Counted from the first letter of the stretch, positions 17,124 through 28,991 are shown. The stretch is DNA of 64,000 bases from Flavobacteriales bacterium (GCA_947444925.1 CANFBW010000002.1:64396-128395), one strand, 5' to 3'. Program-made: numbers and translations. Notes: a model not told the origin generated them from the sequence alone.

Positions 17124-17208
17124 GGAGAGGTGTCAGAGTGGCCGAACGTGCAAGCTTGGAAAGTTTGTGTACCGCAAGGTACCGCGGGTTCGAATCCCGC
17201 CTTCTCCG
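17124..17208 (+). tRNA. tRNA-Ser (anticodon GGA), class II with long variable arm
   Basis: Acceptor stem ggagagg/cctctcc, D-arm gtcagagtggccgaa, anticodon stem caagc/gtttg with loop ttGGAaa, long variable arm, T-arm gggttcgaatccc. CCA not encoded. Confidence 0.85.
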
Positions 17209-17236
17209 CAGATAGATTGTGCAAAACAGTCTAAAA

Positions 17237-17569: not shown

Positions 17570-18661
17570 TTAAACCAACTCCGACCTAAAAAGCAACTTC
17601 AAAAACTCACTCGATTCATAAGGTTTTTCCGAACAACAAATTGCCATTCCTTCCGCCAAAATTTCTTTGTTTATTTTTTTACCGATAAAAACAATTTTGC
17701 TCACTCTTTCTTCATTTCCCCAATTGCCAGCGGATTCGCTAACGTATTGATTGTTCACCGACTGAAAAACCAGCTTTTCTTCGAAATGCTTAAAGTTCAA
17801 AATCCCTTTCACCCTGTATAATTTGAAGGCCGCATCATTCAGGAGCATTCTCATCCAGATGTCAAATTTCAAAAGATCCAAAGGTTCGGAAAAAACAAAA
17901 CTACAGCTTGAAATATCGCTGTGCAATTGTGTTTTCTGATTGGGATTGAGTGCCGGGGATTTCTCTAGCGGCGAAGAAAAAGCGTTGAACGAAAGTCCGC
18001 CAAGTGAAGGCGTTTCAATTTTAGCATTTAAAATATTTTCTCTGCTGAAGGCTTTCAAATTTAAAAGATCAATTCCTTCTACCTTACCAAATGCAGACTC
18101 TCTGATGAGAGCCTGATTGTTCATTCTTTTGACAATATTGGTCACCGTTTCTTTTTGATATGCATCAACCTTATCTGTTTTATTGACCAGTACTACATCT
18201 GCTATTGCCACCTGTTTGCAGGCTTCTTCCTGATCTTCGAGTTGCTGTTCAATAAAACGGGCATCTACCAATGTAATTACAGCGTCCAATCGGAAAGCAC
18301 TTTGTATGGTTTCATCTGCCAAAAAACTCATAGCTACCGGAGCCGGATCAGCAATGCCTGTTGTTTCCACCACTAGGTGATGAATTCCCGGATGGGTTTT
18401 GATTAATTTTTGAAGAACAGTAATCAGTTCATCATTTAACTCACAACAGACGCAGCCGCTGGACAGCTCAAATATTCCGTCTTCAACACCCACCACTAAA
18501 TCGCTGTCGATGTTGATTTCCCCAAATTCATTTTCAATGACGGCGATTTTCTTTGTTGGATTTTGCCTGATTAATTCATTCAACAAAGTTGTTTTTCCGG
18601 CGCCGAGAAACCCTGTGAGAATGGTTACAGGAATTCTTTGATCTTGTTTGTTATTTTCCAT
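17570..18661 (-). CDS. COG0523 (CobW/YeiR/ZigA-type) G3E GTPase metallochaperone, paralog 1
   Basis: Walker [13 protein letters not shown], CxCC metal motif GCVCCEL, ETTGIADPAPV. C-terminal CobW_C-like segment. Confidence 0.8.
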   Translation of the reverse strand: MENNKQDQRIPVTILTGFLGAGKTTLLNELIRQNPTKKIAVIENEFGEINIDSDLVVGVEDGIFELSSGCVCCELNDELITVLQKLIKTHPGIHHLVVETTGIADPAPVAMSFLADETIQSAFRLDAVITLVDARFIEQQLEDQEEACKQVAIADVVLVNKTDKVDAYQKETVTNIVKRMNNQALIRESAFGKVEGIDLLNLKAFSRENILNAKIETPSLGGLSFNAFSSPLEKSPALNPNQKTQLHSDISSCSFVFSEPLDLLKFDIWMRMLLNDAAFKLYRVKGILNFKHFEEKLVFQSVNNQYVSESAGNWGNEERVSKIVFIGKKINKEILAEGMAICCSEKPYESSEFLKLLFRSELV

Positions 18662-19541
18662 AATCCAATAATTCTTTTCCTGAGTTTTTCATAAGTCCGA
18701 TAGCCCATTTAATAATGACAAGTGAACTGATAATACCTACGATAGCATCGAACGCAATCCAATCAAAATAATATCCGATGAGAAGGGAAACAATAGCGGC
18801 AATACTTGTGAGCATATCGGCCAGCACATGAAAATATGCCGCGCGAATATTGTGATCGCCGTGGTCATGATCATGATGAAGCACCTTTGCGCTAATTGCA
18901 TTTACAACCAATCCAATAATACCAACCAAAATAGCTTCCTTAAATTTAATTGTTTCGGGATGCATCAATCGCTCTATAGATTCCACCGACATTAGGAAAG
19001 CCACTATCAATAGTACTATAGCGCTGGTGTACCCTGCAAGCGATAAAATTTTAGCTGTTCCGTTTTTAAATTTTTCGTTTGCCTTGTGTCTTCGTGCAAA
19101 GTAATAGGCGATCCAGCAAAGTCCTATGGCAAAAACATGGGAAGCCATGTGCCAGCCATCGGCCAGTAAAGCCATTGAGTGTGAATGATAGCCAATGCCT
19201 ATTTCCAAAGCTACGGCCAGCACATTGATGAGTACTACTGTTTTTGCTTTTCGTTCGTGATCGTGATGATGGTGTGAAGGATTTTCACAAGAATGTTCAC
19301 TGCCCAAAGGCATTTCTATTTTTTGCCGGATATCTTTTTTGGTAACTTCCTCTAAAGGTTTTTCCAATAGATACCTGTTCATTTTACTGATATTTCCATT
19401 GGGAAAAACCATGATCACGGTAGTTCTGTTTTGACCGTTGGCATAACCCGTTTCAGAAATGAGAATGGAATGCTCCTCGTTGATGCGGAGTTTCCTTCTT
19501 ACCCATTCTTTTATTTTCTCTCTTAAATCTTCTGTTTTCAT
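18651..19541 (-). CDS. Minimal cation-diffusion-facilitator (CDF) transporter fused to an N-terminal ~90-aa domain of unknown function and a His-rich linker
   Basis: Six predicted TM helices with the CDF TM2 signature ALLADGWHMASH and TM5 HVLADMLTS. No C-terminal cytoplasmic domain. Linker HHHHDHERK and loop HHDHDHGDH. The N-terminal domain resembles the standalone ORF 21951-22214. Confidence 0.65.
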   Translation of the reverse strand: MKTEDLREKIKEWVRRKLRINEEHSILISETGYANGQNRTTVIMVFPNGNISKMNRYLLEKPLEEVTKKDIRQKIEMPLGSEHSCENPSHHHHDHERKAKTVVLINVLAVALEIGIGYHSHSMALLADGWHMASHVFAIGLCWIAYYFARRHKANEKFKNGTAKILSLAGYTSAIVLLIVAFLMSVESIERLMHPETIKFKEAILVGIIGLVVNAISAKVLHHDHDHGDHNIRAAYFHVLADMLTSIAAIVSLLIGYYFDWIAFDAIVGIISSLVIIKWAIGLMKNSGKELLDYGK

Positions 19542-19545
19542 AGAT

Positions 19546-20583
19546 TTACGCGCGAATATCCATTATTACTATTTCTCCGTTTTTGCTTCCGGTGGCCAGT
19601 TGTAAATCGTTGGGAGCCCACATTAATGACGTAAGTTCGTTGCCTATTTTCCATTTAACAACAGCTTTGTCTGAACTTTCGGGATACCACAATACTACTC
19701 TGCCCTCCACATCAGCAGAGGCCAGTAATTTTCCTTTGTGCTGAAATTGCAGGGCACTGATTTTAGTGGAGTGTCCCGACAGTGTTAATGGCGCTGTACC
19801 GATGGGAATTTTTCCAGCGAATTTCCACAGAATCAATTCAGCATCATTCGGAGTAGCGAGGAATTTGGCTTCACTGTCCCAAGCCATATTTCTTAATTTT
19901 CCGGGATAGCCCGACATTTGAAAATCGCTTTTAAGCAGATAAGGCAATGGCCACACATGAACACAATTGTCCTGCGTTCCTGCACAAATGAATTTTGAGT
20001 CGGGACTCCAGAAAAGAGAAATCATGGAATTTTGCCAAGGCAAAGTTTGATACGGTTCTTTTTCTTCCACCTTAATTATTTTCACTCCGCCATAGCAGGC
20101 ATAAGCCATTTCACTACTATCGGCTTTCCAGCATAAAGAAGCAATAGAACTGCCTGCTTCAATATACTCATGAATCAGTTCGCCCTGCGCCGACCATAAC
20201 CTCAAAAGTTTTCCTGACGCGCTGGCAAAATATTTTCCGTTGGGCGACCAGTTTACATGCTCCACCCAATGGCTACCGCCTTCCAGTTCTTTAATCGTAT
20301 TTCCTGCCTCGGTATCCCACAAGCGGATTTTTCCATCCTGTCCGCCGGAAAGAAATTTATTTTCCTGAGGAGAATGCGCCAAACAAATAATGCCTGAGGC
20401 ATGTGCTTCGGCGTGAGTGTAGGTTTGTGTGGTTTTAGTATTGATCACACAAATTTCTCCGGCAGCCGAAGAAGCGCAAAGCCACTGCGCATCTTTTGAC
20501 CAGCTCAAGCCGGTAATGTAATCCTTAAGCTGCGTGCGCCACACTTCCTGATTATTTTGCGTTTGTAATTCTTTGTTCATCAC
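19546..20583 (-). CDS. WD40 beta-propeller protein
   Basis: About seven repeats ending in hydrophobic-W-D/S ([36 protein letters not shown]). Confidence 0.75.
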
Positions 20584-21947
20584 AGTACAGCTTCTTTAGA
20601 GCGGATGAGGCAGGATTGAAATCCTTTCATGATTTCTTCGCGGTTTAGATTTTTACCAATAAACACCACTTGATTTTTTCGCTTTTCGCCGGGACGCCAT
20701 TTCCTGTCGGATTGCGCATCAAAAAGCATGTGTACTCCCTGAAAAACAAAACGCTCATCGTTGCCCTTAATATTTAAAATTCCCTTCATCCGGAAAATAT
20801 CAGTTCCCTTGTTTTGCAACAACCAGTTGATCCACTCATCCATTTTTTGAAGATCCAGTTCCCCTTCGGTGTCAATACCAACAGAAGACACGGCATTGTC
20901 GTGTTCATGCGTATGCTCAAATTCACGAAAAGAAAGAGGCCATACTAAATTTTCATTCTGAAAAATTTTCATTCCAAATTCATTGGGGTGGTGTTGTGTA
21001 TATAAAATATAGTATCCGTTTTTTTTCATCTTGAACTTATATTCATTCACCTTGTCATCCACCACAAGTTGATTCAGCGCGTTATTTGTTTTAAGAAATT
21101 TTTGTGGGCGGATGAGAAAAGACGCTTCAGAAAAAAGTTTGATGGCCAGTTTCTTTCCATTTTCAATTTCATTTTCCTCTGCCGAATCGACTTTAACAAT
21201 CGCAATATCCATAGTGGGATCAGGCCCTTCGTCCAACGCCAAAGAATATTCAAATTCATTCAATTCGTAAATAGCAGCCCATTCAAAAGGAACTTCTTCA
21301 TTTAAAATACCGGGATTGATTTCCACTTTGGCATTAAGGTCGAAGGCTTTTACATTTAGTATTTTGTCCATGTCGATATCCGCATCTTTGGTTTTGTAAA
21401 CCTTAGCTTGCGGGTTCATCCGTTGTATTTTATTTTCCAGTTTTTCAAGTTCGCCGGCACTCACCAAATCAATTTTATTGAGCAGAATAACATCGGCAAA
21501 AGCGATTTGCTCCTGACATTCGGAACTGTTGTCGATGTGTAACCACACGTGCTTTGTATCCACCACGGTGATGATCGCATCCAAACTCATCTGTTCTTTC
21601 ATTTCATCGTCTACCCAAAAAGTTTGTGCTACAGGCGCAGGATTGGCGAGTCCTGTAGTTTCTACAATGATGTAGTCAAATTTATCTTTGCGCTTCATGA
21701 GCTGTCCGAGAATACGGATAAGGTCGCCGCGCACCGTACAGCAAATACAGCCATTGTTCATTTCAAATATTTCTTCATCGGCACCTATCACCAATTCATG
21801 ATCAACACCCACTTCGCCAAATTCATTTTCAATCACCGCAATTTTTTTACCGTGATTTTCTTTTAATATCCTGTTCAGTAAAGTTGTTTTTCCAGAGCCT
21901 AAAAATCCTGTAAGGATAGTCACCGGAATGGTTTTGTTATTTTCCAT
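20580..21947 (-). CDS. COG0523 G3E GTPase metallochaperone, paralog 2 (long form with ~150-aa insertion)
   Basis: [30 protein letters not shown]. Insertion carries the His-rich patch EFEHTHEHD. 4-bp overlap with the WD40 gene. Confidence 0.8.
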
Positions 21948-21950
21948 ATA

Positions 21951-22214
21951 TCAATTTTTTTTAGTTTTTAATCCGTCAATATCCCATTTGCGCACGTAGG
22001 TGAGCGGCTTGCCGATTTTAAATTTCAGGGTTTCATTTTCTTTGTAAATTACAATGATAGTTTCCACATCGGGACAATTAGGTTCTGCGCATTTAAGCTC
22101 CGTCACTGTGATGATGACATCATCTGATAAAAGCAATTTAGTCCTTGTCCATTCCTTGACAAGTTTCTTGATTTTACTATTATCTATATCGTTGGGGTTT
22201 TTTAAAAGTGCCAT
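21951..22214 (-). CDS. Small protein (87 aa), standalone copy of the unknown domain fused to the CDF
   Basis: KLVKEWTRTKL...ETIIVIYKENETLKFKIGKPLTYVRKWDI aligns with the CDF N-terminus KIKEWVRRKL...TTVIMVFPNGNISKMNRYLLEKPLEEVTKKDI. Confidence 0.45.
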   Translation of the reverse strand: MALLKNPNDIDNSKIKKLVKEWTRTKLLLSDDVIITVTELKCAEPNCPDVETIIVIYKENETLKFKIGKPLTYVRKWDIDGLKTKKN

Positions 22215-22216
22215 AA

Positions 22217-22987
22217 TTAAAACAACATTTTTTCAATAACACTAACCATTAACATACATAAAACACCAAGACTAATTACCACTCCCTGCACCAACTGATA
22301 TTGTACTTTAGAAGTGTTGTGTAACTCAGGAATCAAATCTGTTGAAGCGATATAAATAAATCCCCCGGCTGCAATAGGTAAAAGATAATTGACCGGAAGC
22401 GCCATAAAAGAACCCAGTAGCAATACCGCCACCACTCCAGCAACACAGGTAAGCGAACAAAGGAAATTATACCACACCGCCTGTTTGGGCGAATAGCCGC
22501 CGTGAATCAACGCGCCTATATCACCCACTTCCTGCGGAATTTCATGAATGATAATGGCGAGCGTTGTGGTCACGCCCAACGCCGGACTGGCCATAAAACT
22601 TCCGGCAATCAAAGTACCATCAATGAAATTGTGAACGGCATCGCCCACCAGATTCATTTTTGCCATAGGTTGTGGTTTTGTGACAGAATGCAGCACAGGC
22701 GTATAAAACTGATGCTTCCAACGAATTATTTTTTCAAGAAAAAAGAACAATAATATTCCTCCCACTGTAACCACCAACACAGAATGCATATCGCCAATGC
22801 GTGTGATGGCATCAGGAATAAGATGCAAAAACGCATCGCCCAGCAACACACCCACTGCGAGACTCATTAAAAACTGCAAAGAATTTTTAAGGGTTTTCTC
22901 CTTGATAAATAAAGCAAATGCTCCTATCAAAGAAACGAAGCTCACTATGAGTGCGGCCAAAACCGAATTTATCCAAATTACATCCAT
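22217..22987 (-). CDS. zupT: ZIP-family metal permease (ZupT-like)
   Basis: HEIPQEVGDIGALI and HNFIDGTLIA signatures, eight TM helices. Confidence 0.8.
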   Translation of the reverse strand: MDVIWINSVLAALIVSFVSLIGAFALFIKEKTLKNSLQFLMSLAVGVLLGDAFLHLIPDAITRIGDMHSVLVVTVGGILLFFFLEKIIRWKHQFYTPVLHSVTKPQPMAKMNLVGDAVHNFIDGTLIAGSFMASPALGVTTTLAIIIHEIPQEVGDIGALIHGGYSPKQAVWYNFLCSLTCVAGVVAVLLLGSFMALPVNYLLPIAAGGFIYIASTDLIPELHNTSKVQYQLVQGVVISLGVLCMLMVSVIEKMLF

Positions 22988-22996
22988 ATCACTTTT

Positions 22997-24184
22997 TTAT
23001 AAATTCCATGTGTCTTCAAAAGAAATTCCTGTCTGCATCGCTATAATTTCAGAATCTGTACAAATACATTCTTGTAAACCTGAAGTGATTTGCTCCACGT
23101 CCATATCCTGACCGATGATTACCAGTTCATTTATCCTGTCACCCCATGTTTCATCCATACGAGCAAGAATAGAAGCTTCATCGCCATTGTGGTTTTTCCA
23201 TTCTTCCCTTGGTTTGGAAATCCACCATACACCTGCCTTTTCGGGACTCACAGAACCACCTGCTTGATTCCAGCTAAAAGCATCCTCAGGGCGAGAAGCC
23301 ATCCAAAACATTCCTTTACTGCGCAAAACATTTTCAGGCCAGTAATCATTTACATACTCTAAAAATCTTGCAGGATGAAAAGGTTTTTTCTCTCTGAAAA
23401 CAAAAGAACTTAATCCATATTCTTCTGTTTCCGGTGTGTGTGGTTTTTCTAATTCATTGATCCAACTGAGCGCAGCCGATGACTTTTCAAAATCGAAGAG
23501 TCGAGTATTAATAATTTCATCTAAAGGAACTTTGCCAAAAGAAGATTCAATGATTTTTGCAGAAGAATTGAGCTTGCGAAGGATTGCTTTTAATTCTGCC
23601 AAACGTTGCGGACGAACTAAATCGGATTTATTTATAACAATGACGTTGGCAAATTCTATCTGATCGACCAAAAGATTGACTATTGTTCTATCGTCGTCCT
23701 GATCGTTATTTAATTTTCTTTCATAAATCGTTTCTAAGCTTTGAAAATCTTCTGCGAAATTAAACGCATCTACAACAGTGACCAGAGTATCTAAAGAACT
23801 GAATTTAGAAAGATCAATTCCTGATGGCTCATCTATATAAGAAAAAGTTTGTGCAACAGGTAAAGGTTCCGAGATGCCAGTGGATTCAATCACCAAATAA
23901 TCAAACCTGTTTTCCATCGCTAATTTTTCTACTTCTTTCAAAAGGTCTTCACGCAGGGTACAGCAAATACATCCGTTCGACATCTCTACGAGTTTTTCTT
24001 CCGTGCGCGATAGCACATTTTCGTTTTTTACAGTAGAGGCATCTACATTAACTTCACTCATGTCATTGACGATCACTGCCACTTTCATTCCTTCCTTGTT
24101 GTGCAAAATGTGATTGAGTAAAGTGGTTTTTCCTGCACCAAGAAATCCACTTAAAACTGTTACAGGTAATTTTTTCATTTTCAT
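22997..24184 (-). CDS. COG0523 G3E GTPase metallochaperone, paralog 3
   Basis: [31 protein letters not shown]-terminal CobW_C ([12 protein letters not shown]). Confidence 0.8.
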
Positions 24185-24259: not shown

Positions 24260-24997
24260 TTATTTTAGTTTATATGCCAATCCTAATGAACCATTGATCC
24301 AACTCATTTGCTGATTGGTGACCAATCTTCCTGCGGTATTGCTCCTGTTTTCATTACTGATGGCAACTCCCGGCGTGCTGAAATAATCGCACATTAATGA
24401 AAGTGCCATTTTTTCGGAAAAGGAATATTTAAATCCTAAACCCAGCTGCCAGCCAAAAGCCGAAGCTGTTGAACTCAATTGCGTGAAGGCCGGATTATCT
24501 TCCAGCTGAACTGAAACTTCAGGAGTGGAGATGCTTTGCGCCAATCCGCCTAAAGCACGGGCTTCTATACTGAATTTATTGAAAGGCAATGAAAAATATG
24601 GCCCTACCAAAAAGTTCAATGTTCTGTATCTGCTGTTGGTGATAACAGTAGATTCGTCAACACCAAAGGCATCGGTATAGCTGTCTCCTAATTTGGTAGC
24701 ATCGTCCTTAGTTAATCCACCGTGATCGGAAAAATTTAGTACGCCTCCGACTCCTATATTTTTGTGGAAATAATAAGCTCCGTCAAATCCAATATTGAAT
24801 CCTGTTTTCGCAAATCCGGAAGTATTGTTCCAGCTGCCAAACTCACCTAAATCAGTGGAAGCAAAATTCCCAAGCGGAGCTGATACTCCTCCTGAAAGGC
24901 CAAGAAAAAAATTGCCTGTGCTTTCTTCCTGCGCACAGATGGTTGATGTAAGCAGCACTATTGCTGTGAGTACACTGAATATATTTTTTGTTTTCAT
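24260..24997 (-). CDS. Outer-membrane beta-barrel protein (porin-like), signal peptide
   Basis: Signal peptide, alternating amphipathic strands, C-terminal ...LGLAYKLK with aromatic/hydrophobic terminus. Confidence 0.5.
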   Translation of the reverse strand: MKTKNIFSVLTAIVLLTSTICAQEESTGNFFLGLSGGVSAPLGNFASTDLGEFGSWNNTSGFAKTGFNIGFDGAYYFHKNIGVGGVLNFSDHGGLTKDDATKLGDSYTDAFGVDESTVITNSRYRTLNFLVGPYFSLPFNKFSIEARALGGLAQSISTPEVSVQLEDNPAFTQLSSTASAFGWQLGLGFKYSFSEKMALSLMCDYFSTPGVAISNENRSNTAGRLVTNQQMSWINGSLGLAYKLK

Positions 24998-25024: not shown

Positions 25025-25702
25025 TTATTGAATAGTTACATTGAATCCTACATCTAAATCGGTGGAGCCCGGCGTGTAAGTGCCATTTTTAGAATTGGGC
25101 TGGTGTCTCAGCATCAATCTCAACCAGCCTGTACTGTTGGCTCCTGTGACAAAACTTGATTGTAAGCCCAAAGGATAAACCTGCGGATTAGAATCATGAT
25201 CTGTAATACTCACAGTAAGATTCAATGCGTTGGAACTCACTGTTGCAGTGGTAGAAGCATTGGTAGGAATAGGATCGGGAAGCACATCTCCGGAAGTATA
25301 AGGAATTACAAAAGCACTCATGCTTGGCAGTGATTGATAAAAAAACAAATGATAGTTTGCCCTTTCTTTTATTTCATTGGAAACATTGAAAACCGGACTC
25401 TGTGATTTATCCAGCAGCACCAGCTCGGCAGTATAAGTAGCATTGGCTTTCAGTGTAAGGTCGACTTTGCTCACATCTACAGGTAAAGGATAGCCATTAG
25501 CATCTAGCAGCTGTTCCCACGTGGCGGTATCTTTATCAAAAGGAGCCAGTGTGTTGGTAACAATTACAGAAACCGTTGTGAGGGCTTCATTGGCGATAGT
25601 AGGCGCAACTACCTGCTCCTCCTTGTTACAGGCTTGTATGGTGAAAGCCACCAATACTACAGCCAGTAATTTTGTTTTTGAAATGTACTTCATTTTAATC
25701 AT
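25025..25702 (-). CDS. Lipoprotein of unknown function encoded directly downstream of the TonB-dependent receptor
   Basis: Lipobox ...FTIQAC NKEE. Ser/Thr-rich beta-type sequence. Confidence 0.5.
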   Translation of the reverse strand: MIKMKYISKTKLLAVVLVAFTIQACNKEEQVVAPTIANEALTTVSVIVTNTLAPFDKDTATWEQLLDANGYPLPVDVSKVDLTLKANATYTAELVLLDKSQSPVFNVSNEIKERANYHLFFYQSLPSMSAFVIPYTSGDVLPDPIPTNASTTATVSSNALNLTVSITDHDSNPQVYPLGLQSSFVTGANSTGWLRLMLRHQPNSKNGTYTPGSTDLDVGFNVTIQ

Positions 25703-25712
25703 CGTTTAAGGT

Positions 25713-28082
25713 TTAATTATTATTGGTATTGTGTTTAGAAAATTCAAAAGGGACTTTTATTCTCAGCACGAAATTTCTGCCTAAATCATCAGTGAAATAG
25801 CGAAAACGGTTGAGATAATCCCTGTAAGATTTGTTGAGCATATTGTTCACCGAAAAATCAACGGAAACAACTTGCTTGCCTATAAGGAAATCAAAGTTGA
25901 TATTGGCACCTAACAAAACATATCCCGCCGGAGGAAGCGCAAAGTCGCTGTTGGCAGGAACATTATTTTGTTTTGCCACATTCAGGTTGCTGATGCCCAG
26001 CGATACTTTTTGGAGTTTTCCGATTTTTCCGATTTCATATTTTATAGAATTATCTATTCTATTAGACGGTGCATAAATCAGGAAATCATGAATGCTGTTA
26101 TTGTAAGCATAGATATAAGATGTTTTTGTGGTAAAAGTAATTTTGTGAAGTGTATATTCTGCTTTCACATCAACTCCGGTAAATACAACATTTGCTTGTG
26201 TATAGCTGAAAGCAGGGAATGACCCGCGAATGGTATGAATAGCAATTAAATCGGGTTTGAGATAAGTGTAATTGATAATGATGTTATGGTAAGCACCAAA
26301 ATTCAACACAAAATTTTTGTTGGAATATTTTATTTCCGAATTGAAATTATACGCGTGTTCAGGAACGAGATTAGAATTTCCTATTTCATACGAAGCTGCA
26401 CTTTGATGAACTCCCTTAGAAAACAGTTCATTCACAGTAGGCGCTTTCCATGCCGTGCTAAAATTTGCACTTATGCTCATTTTCTCTGTGAGTCGGTATT
26501 CGGCTCCTGCAGCGATAGTGAAATTTTCGTAGTGGTAAGTGGGGGTAATGACCTGCGCGGTAGTGTTATCAAGCATATAAACTCTCATCCATCTGTAATC
26601 GTAGCGGATACCGCCTTCTATACTCCACCTGTTTTTCTGCCATTTCTCAATCCATAAAATTCCGCCGCCATAGTTCCTGAAATTAGGAATCAAAAATTCG
26701 TACTTCCGTACATTTCCCTGTGTAATTCCATTAAATCCGATGCTTCCCTTTATGTTTTTAAAAGATTTATGTTCCCAAATACCATCGAGTGTTTGGGTTT
26801 GTATTCTCAAATAAAGTTCGGGATTCAGCTTGCCTGTAAAAGGGATATATCCATATTCCGATCTTTCGTTTTGCTGGGAAGCAAAGGTTAATTCAAACCT
26901 TCCCAGTTTTTCAGATTTGTAATATGCTTTTGCTTTAAACAAATTGTGTTGAACCAATTGATAAGGACGATCGATAGTATAAGTGAATACATCGGGAGTA
27001 AGGGGCTTATCTCTTTTAATTGCCGACAGAATATCACTTACCGCTTCGGCATGTGTGCCGGAAAAAATTCCCAGCTGAGTAAAAAAGCTACTGTAATAAA
27101 GTTCCGCTCCGTAATTCTTTTTAGTGTAGGCTAAAGTGGCGGAATAATTAATTTCTTTAGAGGCTGTATTATCCATATAATAATAAGCCGTTCTGCTATT
27201 TCCTGAGCGTTTATAAGTTCCCTGTACACGCCAGCTTAATCCCGAAAATTTTTTACCAAAAGCTCCATCCAACATTGCAGAAGATGTTCCCGCATATCCG
27301 TTGCTCATGCCAACTAAATTTATTTCTCCGCCAATGCCGGGATTAATACGCATTTTTTTAGGCTCCACCAGAATAACTCCCCCGATCGCATCAGAACCGT
27401 AACGGATACTTGCTGCACCTTTCACCACAATTAGATTAGTAGCGATGAAGGGATCAATTTCGGGAGCATGCTCCGACCCCCATTGCTGACCCTCCTGTCT
27501 TATTCCATTATTCAATATCAATATCCGATTGCTGTGTAATCCGTGGATAACAGGTTTTGAAATAGAAGGGCCAGTTTGAATCGTATAAACACCGGCAAGA
27601 CTTTTCAGAGATTCACCTAAAGAAAGTCCTCTTGTTTTGTCGAGTTCCTTTCCTTTGATTTGTTCCTGTGGTTGTATCAACGGCACACTATCATTACCTC
27701 TTCTTTTTACAATCAATATTTCATGAATCGAACAAGTATCGAAATGCATGGTTACATCCTGTGAATGATTCCCCTGTATGTGCAAAGTGCACGTAAACGT
27801 TTTGTGCCCCACATGACTATACTGTACCGTATATGAACCCGCGCAAATAAAATTTAAATGATACACTCCACTATCATTAGTGGCCATACCTTTATTGAGT
27901 TCTTTAATTTCCACAGAAACAGATGATAAATTTTGATGGGTTTCGCCACTGTACACTTTCCCGCTTAGAGTAAAAGAGCATTTGTCTGTATTCACCTGAG
28001 CGTATAAATGCCCATAACAAAACAGCATTGACATGCTTGCCGTATAAAAAAACTTCATGAAATAATTAGAATTTAAAACCAA
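25713..28082 (-). CDS. TonB-dependent receptor with N-terminal carboxypeptidase-regulatory-like domain
   Basis: CarbopepD_reg-like N-terminus (SGKVYSGETHQ...NDSGVYHL). Plug domain (VYTIQTGPSISKPVIHGLHSNRILILNNGIRQEGQQWG). Long beta-barrel with C-terminal aromatic residue. Confidence 0.85.
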   Translation of the reverse strand: MVLNSNYFMKFFYTASMSMLFCYGHLYAQVNTDKCSFTLSGKVYSGETHQNLSSVSVEIKELNKGMATNDSGVYHLNFICAGSYTVQYSHVGHKTFTCTLHIQGNHSQDVTMHFDTCSIHEILIVKRRGNDSVPLIQPQEQIKGKELDKTRGLSLGESLKSLAGVYTIQTGPSISKPVIHGLHSNRILILNNGIRQEGQQWGSEHAPEIDPFIATNLIVVKGAASIRYGSDAIGGVILVEPKKMRINPGIGGEINLVGMSNGYAGTSSAMLDGAFGKKFSGLSWRVQGTYKRSGNSRTAYYYMDNTASKEINYSATLAYTKKNYGAELYYSSFFTQLGIFSGTHAEAVSDILSAIKRDKPLTPDVFTYTIDRPYQLVQHNLFKAKAYYKSEKLGRFELTFASQQNERSEYGYIPFTGKLNPELYLRIQTQTLDGIWEHKSFKNIKGSIGFNGITQGNVRKYEFLIPNFRNYGGGILWIEKWQKNRWSIEGGIRYDYRWMRVYMLDNTTAQVITPTYHYENFTIAAGAEYRLTEKMSISANFSTAWKAPTVNELFSKGVHQSAASYEIGNSNLVPEHAYNFNSEIKYSNKNFVLNFGAYHNIIINYTYLKPDLIAIHTIRGSFPAFSYTQANVVFTGVDVKAEYTLHKITFTTKTSYIYAYNNSIHDFLIYAPSNRIDNSIKYEIGKIGKLQKVSLGISNLNVAKQNNVPANSDFALPPAGYVLLGANINFDFLIGKQVVSVDFSVNNMLNKSYRDYLNRFRYFTDDLGRNFVLRIKVPFEFSKHNTNNN

Positions 28083-28123: not shown

Positions 28124-28477
28124 TTAAATAGTATTTGCTGCGGGAGGAGATCTTCCTGAGGATTCAGGAGTGATTTTTTCTGCTTTAAGCAGTAAAAGGG
28201 AATAATTGTTATAAGTATAAAAAACCGGACTTTTTACAAAAACTAAATCATTGTAATACAATTCATGTGAAAGATTCAGAGAACATATTTTACATTTCTC
28301 ATCTGCTTTACAGATTTCTTGTTCGGGATTATCATGCTTTTTTTGATGCGCTGAATGCTGCGTGTGATTGTGTAAAAACCCCGATACAACCTGTATAAAA
28401 AGAAGGTTGAAAAGGAGAACACCCGATAAAACGATATTTAAAATTGCTCGTATTTTCACAAATTTTTGTTGCAACAA
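28124..28477 (-). CDS. Small His/Cys-rich membrane protein (questionable)
   Basis: TTG start. One TM helix followed by HNHTQHSAHQKKHD and CKADEKCKICS. Could be spurious. Confidence 0.3.
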   Translation of the reverse strand: MLQQKFVKIRAILNIVLSGVLLFNLLFIQVVSGFLHNHTQHSAHQKKHDNPEQEICKADEKCKICSLNLSHELYYNDLVFVKSPVFYTYNNYSLLLLKAEKITPESSGRSPPAANTI

Positions 28478-28562
28478 CGATTCAAATGTATAAATATATT
28501 TTTAATGCAACAATGTTTCACGTAAACTTAACATAGACTACGGAAAATAATATCTTTGCAGA

Positions 28563-28991
28563 ATGGCACATTTAAAGAAAGAAAATATTGAGCACCTTCT
28601 TCGGGAACATCAGCTAAAATTAACACCCCAAAGAGTGGCTGTGCTAAAAGTATTCTTAGAAAGAGACAAAGTGATGAGTCTGGCTTCCCTCAACAAATAC
28701 TTAGGGAAAGATTTTGACAGGATTACTTTGTACCGCACATTGAATGCCTTTGAAGAAAAAGGATTGATCCATAAAATCCCTGATAAAGAAGTTGCTTCTT
28801 ATGCGCTTTGTAAACATGACTCCATCAGCCATTCACACGAAGACAACCACGCTCATTTCAAATGCACCAGTTGTTCCCTTACTGTTTGCCTCGATGAAGT
28901 TCAGATTCCACAAATAGTTCTTCCAAAGAAATTCAAGGCTCAAAAATTCAATTTTATAGTGGAAGGGCTTTGCGAGGACTGTAAAAAGTAA
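28563..28991 (+). CDS. Fur-family metalloregulator (Zur-like by context)
   Basis: LKLTPQRVAVLKVF DNA-binding helix. HSHEDNHAHFKCTSC...CEDC metal sites. Divergent from the TBDR operon. Confidence 0.8.
   Translation: MAHLKKENIEHLLREHQLKLTPQRVAVLKVFLERDKVMSLASLNKYLGKDFDRITLYRTLNAFEEKGLIHKIPDKEVASYALCKHDSISHSHEDNHAHFKCTSCSLTVCLDEVQIPQIVLPKKFKAQKFNFIVEGLCEDCKK

Follow-up and report, generated by a model that had tools for sequence, protein, structure and literature searches.

A small two-cysteine domain, present twice in an operon of a Flavobacteriales bacterium, and its genomic partnership with COG0523 GTPases and WD40 proteins

The locus and its two copies of one domain

We analyzed a 64,000-nucleotide stretch of DNA from a Flavobacteriales bacterium (GCA_947444925.1 CANFBW010000002.1:64396-128395), hereafter the window, which carries on its minus strand an operon spanning approximately 17.5-28.5 kb (positions are counted from the first letter of the window). 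This operon encodes a small domain twice: as a standalone protein of 87 amino acids (aa) and as the N-terminus of a cation diffusion facilitator (CDF) transporter. The domain belongs to a family of small proteins without a name, for which we use the term "s-domain", and whose genes are partnered with those of COG0523 GTPases and WD40 proteins. Both open reading frames (ORFs) were confirmed, on the minus strand, with the following parts:

21951-22214, minus strand: 87-aa ORF, standalone s-domain protein (BLASTP, hidden Markov model, AlphaFold2)
22059-22100, minus strand: hallmark loop of the 87-aa ORF, residues 39-52, E-L-K-C-A-E-P-N-C-P-D-V-E-T (family alignment)
18651-19541, minus strand: CDF transporter, 296 aa (Pfam, NCBIfam)
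19314-19541, minus strand: fused s-domain, CDF residues 1-76, divergent, without cysteines (BLASTP, hidden Markov model, AlphaFold2)
19248-19313, minus strand: predicted disordered linker, CDF residues 77-98, including HHHHDH (AlphaFold2)
18651-19247, minus strand: CDF transmembrane domain, residues 99-296 plus stop, with six transmembrane segments (TMs) (Pfam, NCBIfam, sequence)

The original prediction for this DNA, made from the sequence alone, held that the two segments align, and took an E value of 0.01 as its limit. BLASTP of the 87-aa ORF against the whole CDF returned the segments quoted there as a single alignment (residues 15-79 versus 6-71, 29% identity, 30.8 bits) with E=2e-6, well inside that limit. 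A family hidden Markov model (HMM) built from 89 members, with the CDF copy left out, scored 45 bits on CDF residues 5-81 (E=4e-10 when a database size of 1e6 is assumed), 116.6 bits on the 87-aa ORF, and 34 bits on an orthologous fusion, P0106. When this CDF-free HMM was run against the 460 ORFs of the window (at least 50 aa, six frames), the two copies matched and nothing else did.

AlphaFold2 models were made with family alignments, covering residues 1-98 of the CDF. The 87-aa ORF (mean pLDDT 86, dipping in residue block 41-50) was modelled with a helix at 13-27, strands at 34-41, 50-57, and 62-67, and a helix at 76-80; the CDF segment (mean pLDDT 85) has a helix at 3-18, strands at 25-32, 39-46, and 55-59, and a helix at 68-76. 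The order of elements, helix-strand-strand-strand-helix (alpha-beta3-alpha), is alike in both models. The 87-aa ORF and the first ~76 residues of the CDF are two copies of one homologous domain. A chance or compositional similarity between segments that share no domain might be argued from the identity of only 29% and from the absence of the family's hallmark cysteines from the CDF copy; it is refuted by the BLASTP E value, by the CDF-free HMM, which matched both fusions without a spurious match among the window ORFs, and by the identical order of predicted secondary structure, leaving it with practically no chance of being correct.

The s-domain family

Word-indexed searches with the 87-aa ORF or the CDF N-terminus returned a 98% ortholog or nothing, and an exhaustive HMM search was required. 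Conducted with HMMER on 1.84 billion cluster representatives, it found 504 proteins at E<=1e-3 (a family size that counts clusters at 50% identity), 51 of them at E<=1e-10. Members are nearly all standalone proteins of 77-127 aa with a core of ~70 residues; among the matches listed, one representative is a CDF fusion.

Near-invariant positions, in the numbering of the 87-aa ORF, are W22, E39, C42, C47, T52, K69, and D78. The family hallmark, E-x2-C-x-[E/D]-P-x-C-P-x2-E-T, occupies the loop between strands 1 and 2, and its Cx4C is kept in 181 of 187 sequences, the exceptions being the CDF fusions and three odd members. The 87-aa ORF carries the motif as C42-A-E-P-N-C47-P, together with the near-invariant E39 and T52. 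Judged from the sequence, the hallmark loop is a candidate metal or thiol site.

A further peptide, F-x-N-P-x-D-P-x-N, precedes helix 1 (residues 4-12 of the 87-aa ORF; 22179-22205, minus strand) and is predicted to be disordered. It was seen in 26 of 29 Bacteroidota members and in none of 80 members of a subgroup designated EPGCPP, is absent from the CDF-fused copy, and may be a short docking motif.

No Pfam or NCBIfam match was found for 90 family members, and no PDB sequence match for the family profile. Searches of the three libraries with single sequences and with profiles of 3 and 90 sequences gave nothing credible, Apc13p and DEK_C falling below cut-offs. Together with the 45-bit match of the CDF-free HMM to the CDF copy, these results bear out the claim of an unknown domain that is present twice. 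Foldseek comparison of both models with the PDB gave a best E value of 0.05 and TM-scores below 0.5. The top, weak matches of both models, to the double-stranded RNA-binding domain (dsRBD), SRP14, and T7 Gp1.2, have the alpha-beta3-alpha order of elements in common with the s-domain, but at E values of at least 0.05 and TM-scores below 0.5 they do not count as evidence of homology or of RNA binding. Membership in the dsRBD family was rejected (Foldseek E of at least 0.15, TM-score below 0.5, no Pfam dsrm match). The s-domain family is real, widespread, and unnamed.

Public sources label members "hypothetical protein" or, in a few cases, "nitrate reductase (delta subunit)" (RefSeq, IMG). A NarJ/TorD identity was rejected, with no PF02613 (Nitrate_red_del) match in the 87-aa ORF, the CDF N-terminus, or the 90 members. 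Two ORFs (L077, 3-866, and L078, 2-916, both plus strand) join a NarJ/TorD-like domain (PF02613, 25.7 bits) to a C-terminal s-domain in which both cysteines are kept; PF02613 matches their N-terminal part only, and an ORF that looks by eye like NarI follows. The label on members such as WP_140533447.1 probably spread from rare fusions of this kind, and the present analysis corrects a misannotation that is propagating. Other apparent long s-domain fusions in high-GC loci were mostly artefacts of upstream ORF extension; the NarJ-like fusion alone looks real.

The CDF transporter and its fused copy

The CDF matched PF01545 (Cation_efflux) at 122.7 bits (cut-off 26.6) over residues 102-292 of 296, and TIGR01297 at 174 bits (cut-off 82) in an alignment that stops at model position 200 of 285. 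No ZT_dimer match was found in Pfam for a C-terminal cytoplasmic domain, and ~12 residues follow TM6, confirming the earlier observation that this transporter lacks such a domain. Its best family match was DmeF, a Co(II)/Ni(II) exporter (NCBIfam NF033827), at 230.6 bits; the score is under the equivalog cut-off of 250, which may be due to the missing domain. Putative transport-site residues, read from the sequence, are H131/H135 in TM2 and H238/D242 in TM5. The window CDF thus has in common with DmeF the H-x3-H of TM2, the H-x3-D of TM5, and His-rich cytoplasmic segments, and is unlike it in scoring below 250, in having no C-terminal domain, and in carrying an N-terminal s-domain, which only two species-level lineages share when the 120 closest CDF clusters are compared.

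The C-terminal domain is likewise missing from the closest ~100 CDF homologs. The nearest relatives, from Bacteroidota and Ignavibacteria, are 205-250 aa long and 50-63% identical over the membrane domain; they end at the same ...SGKxLxDY position, most of them with just a short His-rich N-terminus. Several of these tail-less relatives lie on contigs of hundreds of kb and are therefore not fragments, and because the closest of them have no extra domain, tail loss is a clade trait that is independent of the module. About one-fifth of the top 120 CDF clusters carry an N-terminal nitroreductase domain. We know of no published description of this nitroreductase-CDF architecture (PF00881 fold, ~430-440 aa; P0221, P0223, P0246, P0261, and others).

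Fusions to the s-domain were found among the 120 closest clusters in the near-identical ortholog P0188 and the 67%-identical P0106 only. The P0106 locus keeps the core gene order (Fur ... ZIP, 87-aa s-gene, COG0523 of 455 aa, WD40, s-domain-CDF, COG0523 of 359 aa), and thus both the free and the fused copies are retained in a second lineage. Located ahead of TM1 of a CDF, the fused module is predicted to lie on the cytoplasmic side. It keeps E30, T41, K61-P62-L63, and D70, and has Y33 and G36 in place of the cysteines, in a loop that is two residues shorter; with both cysteines lost and the loop shortened, it is a degenerate member of the family. A recent duplication within the operon was considered as its origin and rejected, as it is 25% identical to its own 87-aa ORF and no closer to it than to other members. 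There was also no signal of descent from the s-domain subgroup that neighbors C-type COG0523 genes (described below), the fused copy being equally distant from all subgroups.

Between the window and the P0106 lineage, identity is 74% for the free protein, 78% for the membrane domain, 48% for the fused module, and 40% for the linker. Relative to a 97% identical relative, the ratio of nonsynonymous to synonymous differences (pN/pS, from small counts) was 0.09 in the module, 0.06 in the membrane domain, and 0.03 in the free protein. The fused module is under purifying selection and is not decaying.

The original prediction took the N-terminal module together with the HHHHDH linker. The module is indeed present, but HHHHDH is not part of it: the motif is not conserved in P0106, and His-rich segments ahead of TM1 are general in this CDF clade. 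It was further proposed there that the module replaces the canonical regulatory domain. In a fuller form of this reading, the module would serve, with the linker, in cytoplasmic metal sensing or dimerization and gate transport. The C-terminal domain of CDFs, as in the structures of YiiP, CzrB, and MamM, has a ferredoxin-like beta-alpha-beta-beta-alpha-beta fold, from which the alpha-beta3-alpha topology of the s-domain differs. A small alpha/beta domain, under purifying selection and on the cytoplasmic side of a CDF that has no C-terminal domain, would suit such a role, and the canonical domain is itself small and metallochaperone-like (PMC4995437). However, (i) hundreds of close tail-less relatives work either without an extra domain or with a nitroreductase domain, (ii) the two cysteines, the family's sole conserved candidate ligands, are lost in the fused copy, and (iii) the His-rich linker is unconserved in the orthologous fusion. 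The claim of replacement is not supported by this comparison, and we consider the substitution unlikely.

Organization of the operon

From its head, the operon encodes a small TM ORF, a TonB-dependent receptor, a lipoprotein, an outer-membrane protein (OMP), COG0523-A, a ZIP permease, the 87-aa ORF, COG0523-B, a WD40 protein, the CDF, and COG0523-C; a Fur-family gene is divergent from it. The genes other than the two already given are:

28563-28991, plus strand: Fur-family regulator gene, divergent (Pfam, NCBIfam)
28124-28477, minus strand: small His/Cys-rich membrane ORF, 117 aa, at the operon head (no Pfam match)
25713-28082, minus strand: TonB-dependent receptor (Pfam)
25025-25702, minus strand: lipoprotein, 225 aa, without Pfam match (weak NigD-like N-terminal match only)
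24260-24997, minus strand: OMP beta-barrel (Pfam)
22997-24184, minus strand: COG0523-A, ZigA-like (563 bits versus a curated cut-off of 600)
22217-22987, minus strand: ZIP-family permease, weak ZupT-like match, directly upstream of the 87-aa ORF
20580-21947, minus strand: COG0523-B, 455 aa, with the CxCC motif GCICC (Pfam, NCBIfam)
19546-20583, minus strand: cytoplasmic WD40 beta-propeller, 345 aa (Pfam)
17570-18661, minus strand: COG0523-C, 363 aa (Pfam)

The operon is tightly packed, with 0-10 nucleotides (nt) between genes, or overlaps. The start codon of the 87-aa ORF comes right after the ZIP stop codon, and its own stop lies 3 nt ahead of the COG0523-B start; the start of COG0523-C overlaps the CDF stop by 11 nt. 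COG0523-B has an insert of ~170 residues (residues ~185-352) between its GTPase and CobW_C domains, in which lies a His-rich stretch, EHTHEHD, absent from paralogs A and C. Everything points to the whole operon serving metal acquisition and allocation during metal starvation, most likely zinc starvation.

Gene neighborhood of the family

Loci were gathered by two motif-based subgroup scans, a biased and non-random sample comprising 29 Bacteroidota genome loci and 80 metagenome loci of the EPGCPP subgroup (several phyla, dereplicated at 80% identity), to which several single-member look-ups were added. Within 3.5 kb of the s-gene, a COG0523 gene was present in 48 of the 80 sampled metagenome loci (60%) and a WD40 gene in 36 (45%); where at least 3 kb was available on both flanks, the counts were 30 of 39 (77%) and 20 of 39, respectively. 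The partner GTPase mostly best matched COG0523-B of the window. The commonest orders were s>COG0523-B>WD40 and COG0523-B>WD40>s, and the stop and start codons of the s-gene and its COG0523 or WD40 neighbors often overlap.

Carriers of this triad, cultured strains among them, belong to Bacteroidota and Alphaproteobacteria or are unclassified high-G+C metagenome contigs. In Gemmobacter aquarius the order is Fur, ZnuBA, COG0523, WD40, s (WP_108437646.1), a hypothetical gene, DUF1826, and COG0523, while in Agrobacterium rubi, Phyllobacterium zundukense, and Mesorhizobium COG0523-s pairs stand by Fur-family or zinc ABC transporter genes. Recurrent neighbors of s-genes are Fur-family regulators, ZnuABC, ZIP, NicO, DUF1826, dihydroorotase-like (DHOase-like) amidohydrolases, and CbiM. 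An s-gene abuts ZIP in the window, L012, L033, and L051, and NicO in L036; the COG0523-C type of paralog adjoins standalone s-genes in four other Bacteroidota loci (L013, L016, L021, L024). The unrelated high-GC loci L036, L098, and L115 have, close to the triad, DmeF-like CDFs in which the C-terminal domain is present, and the link between CDF and triad is on this ground older and wider than the fusion. The family has a genomic partnership with COG0523, WD40, and metal-starvation genes.

Other surroundings were also seen. In Saprospiraceae the s-gene comes right after a RibBA gene (L011, L014, L015, L017-L019); GTP cyclohydrolase II is a zinc enzyme. In five Chitinophagaceae/Cytophagaceae loci (L004-L006, L008, L009) a thioredoxin gene follows one or two genes after the s-gene, and in three of these (L005, L006, L009) a protein combining a metallo-beta-lactamase (MBL) fold with rhodanese is encoded directly after the s-gene, between it and the thioredoxin gene. 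Loci L123-L125 encode P0107, a standalone protein of 104 aa with one cysteine that resembles the N-terminal module of the CDF more than it does the 87-aa ORF. It is preceded by an ORF like the 87-aa s-protein and a 50-aa fragment of a COG0523 N-terminus, and followed by a Fur-family gene and a TonB receptor gene; the locus has the look of an operon of the same type that has collapsed.

These minority surroundings bear on a different account, in which the family is mainly concerned with thiol/redox chemistry or sulfur handling through a redox-active Cx4C, its proximity to COG0523 reflects co-regulation, and the fused copy is a structural appendage only. Besides the thioredoxin and MBL-rhodanese neighbors in approximately five loci, one locus has a neighbor resembling a thioredoxin-like 2Fe-2S protein, and the s-domain is fused to a NarJ-like chaperone in L077/L078. 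Adjacency to COG0523 and WD40 genes is, however, far more frequent, extends across phyla, and often comes with overlapping stop and start codons; the prevailing neighbors are metal transporters and Fur-family regulators rather than redox systems. We give the thiol/redox account little credence.

A proposed role for the free and the fused copy

We favor a picture in which the free protein handles metal as an adaptor of the COG0523/WD40 machinery and the fused copy, lacking the ligands, serves as a docking tether on an exporter. In this proposal, the free protein would act as a cytoplasmic accessory whose two-cysteine loop holds metal, probably Zn(II) or Co(II), or hands it over by ligand exchange with the CxCC site of the GTPase; it may collect that metal at the ZIP or NicO permeases that are often encoded adjacent to it. 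The fused copy, in which the supposed docking surface (E30, T41, K61-P-L, D70) is kept and the ligands are gone, would form an integral tether and position a COG0523 GTPase at the exporter's cytoplasmic mouth, the translationally coupled COG0523-C being the likeliest paralog to be tethered. Three activities might in this way be physically coupled during zinc starvation: import by a ZIP permease of low specificity, allocation of zinc by the GTPases, and expulsion of metal that is in excess or of the wrong kind (Co or Ni) by the DmeF-like CDF. The earlier suggestion that the module is a docking site for the co-encoded GTPases fits the adjacency to COG0523 and WD40 genes across phyla and the overlap of COG0523-C with the CDF, and to that extent it stands, as a reading of gene context.

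Several observations weigh against this picture. Two cysteines alone make an incomplete Zn site, and the Fur-family regulator scores equally weakly against the PerR, Zur, and Fur models of NCBIfam. As the loci came from two motif-based scans, the percentages given above are not valid for the whole family. No COG0523 gene lies near the s-gene in 22 of the 29 Bacteroidota genome loci, where it stands instead beside RibBA, beside an MBL-rhodanese protein and thioredoxin, or beside META/RND genes; the RibBA and thioredoxin contexts are unaccounted for by the adaptor-and-tether explanation, and a Beijerinckia locus has no metal context. Finally, the fused copy diverges faster than the free one (48% versus 74% identity), and that of P0106 is without the near-invariant Trp as well. 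We put the chances of the overall picture at about even. The partnership with COG0523 and WD40 is much more certain than this, and the tether mechanism less certain.

The same free protein could, alternatively, be a client of the GTPase or a buffer or sink for Zn or Co, loaded by COG0523 in starvation, with the CDF copy a decoy that has no partner function. The conserved two-cysteine loop, the small size, and the co-transcription with metallochaperones would all suit such a part. A single two-cysteine site per ~85 residues, however, offers poor storage capacity, and protein-protein contacts better explain why the domain is recurrently fused to transporters or encoded beside them and why a copy without ligands is under selection; this alternative strikes us as improbable.

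A more specific version of the adaptor-and-tether proposal can be drawn by analogy. UreE and HypA are thought to hand metal to or from their GTPases. Like the s-protein, the members of the UreE/UreG and HypA/HypB pairs that accompany the GTPase are small cytoplasmic proteins with few conserved ligands, encoded beside a G3E-family metal GTPase; the WD40 protein would correspond to the scaffold UreF/UreH of the urease system, a functional analogy inferred from gene context. The s-protein is unlike UreE and HypA in that it has no similarity to them in sequence or fold (Pfam, NCBIfam, PDB), has two conserved cysteines only, and is partnered with a COG0523 GTPase. On this analogy the two-cysteine protein would be a dedicated COG0523 accessory in the role of UreE or HypA, with WD40 as its scaffold, coupling the GTPases to ZIP, NicO, and CDF transporters, and the CDF fusion would be a Rosetta-stone record of GTPase-controlled metal delivery or gating. 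To our knowledge this mode of regulation is not known for CDFs, and we advance the idea tentatively, as a possible but rather doubtful extension.

Relation to known metal-allocation systems

Among the G3E metallochaperone GTPases, COG0523 forms the largest branch and the one least understood, and clients are known for only a few of its members, e.g., ZagA with FolE and ZNG1 with METAP1. In the literature searched, we found no bacterial accessory protein of COG0523 GTPases described, and the s-domain is a testable candidate for that missing partner. Our search for a COG0523/WD40 partner returned a single remark: in prokaryotes, genes of one COG0523 subfamily (subfamily 5) are grouped with znuABC and genes for WD40-repeat proteins, and lie downstream of predicted Zur sites (Haas et al. 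2009, PMC2770081). The COG0523-B/WD40 pair of the window fits that picture, being likened to it by gene context. The account of Haas et al. (2009) does not mention the small two-cysteine protein, and neither does any other of the literature searched. The triad of a two-cysteine protein of ~85 aa, a long COG0523 paralog, and a WD40 propeller constitutes a concrete set of proteins for joint testing.

In Cupriavidus metallidurans, genetics and isotope flux have placed the ZIP importer ZupT, the COG0523 proteins CobW2 and CobW3, and DmeF in one Zn/Co homeostasis network under zinc starvation (PMC11340326). The window operon has the same types of components, namely a ZIP importer, COG0523 GTPases, and a DmeF-type CDF. 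In Cupriavidus, however, the genes are dispersed and no adaptor has been described, whereas in the window they form one operon with an extra domain that occurs twice, once fused to the CDF. A ligand-less copy on a DmeF-like exporter suggests physical wiring of a ZIP/COG0523/DmeF network that in Cupriavidus is so far genetic only, and with the s-domain-CDF the CDF transporters would gain a new domain architecture. Operons of this type are known. To judge from the libraries and literature searched, neither the domain family nor the triad that it forms with COG0523 and WD40 nor the s-domain-CDF architecture has been described before.

Promoter region and other genes of the operon

The divergent promoter region (28478-28562) lies between the operon and the Fur-family gene, which is conserved in three lineages. 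It contains two direct copies, ~36 bp apart, of an element resembling AACATTGTTGCA: one of 13 bases, AACATTGTTGCAT, and a second one with mismatches, AATCGTTGTTGCA. The latter continues into a perfect 12-bp palindrome, TTGTTGCAACAA, which is located just outside the region (28466-28477) and overlaps the start of the small head ORF. Both copies are conserved in the 67%-diverged species (window 28466-28545; L033 4005-4060), and these repeats of the AACATTGTTGCA type are a candidate operator.

In the 117-aa head ORF, a single hydrophobic segment at the N-terminus is accompanied by a stretch rich in His and Cys (HNHTQHSAHQKKHD...CKADEKCKICS). The ORF is kept in L001, L010 (33% identity), and L033/L034, in each case with the Fur gene on one side and the transport genes on the other. 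Homologs of the 225-aa lipoprotein were found in L010 and, each right behind a gene for a TonB-dependent receptor, in L013 and L021; the lipoprotein may act with the receptor in capturing metal at the surface. Just downstream of the last gene of the operon, on the opposite strand, lies a tRNA-Ser(GGA) gene (17124-17209, plus strand).

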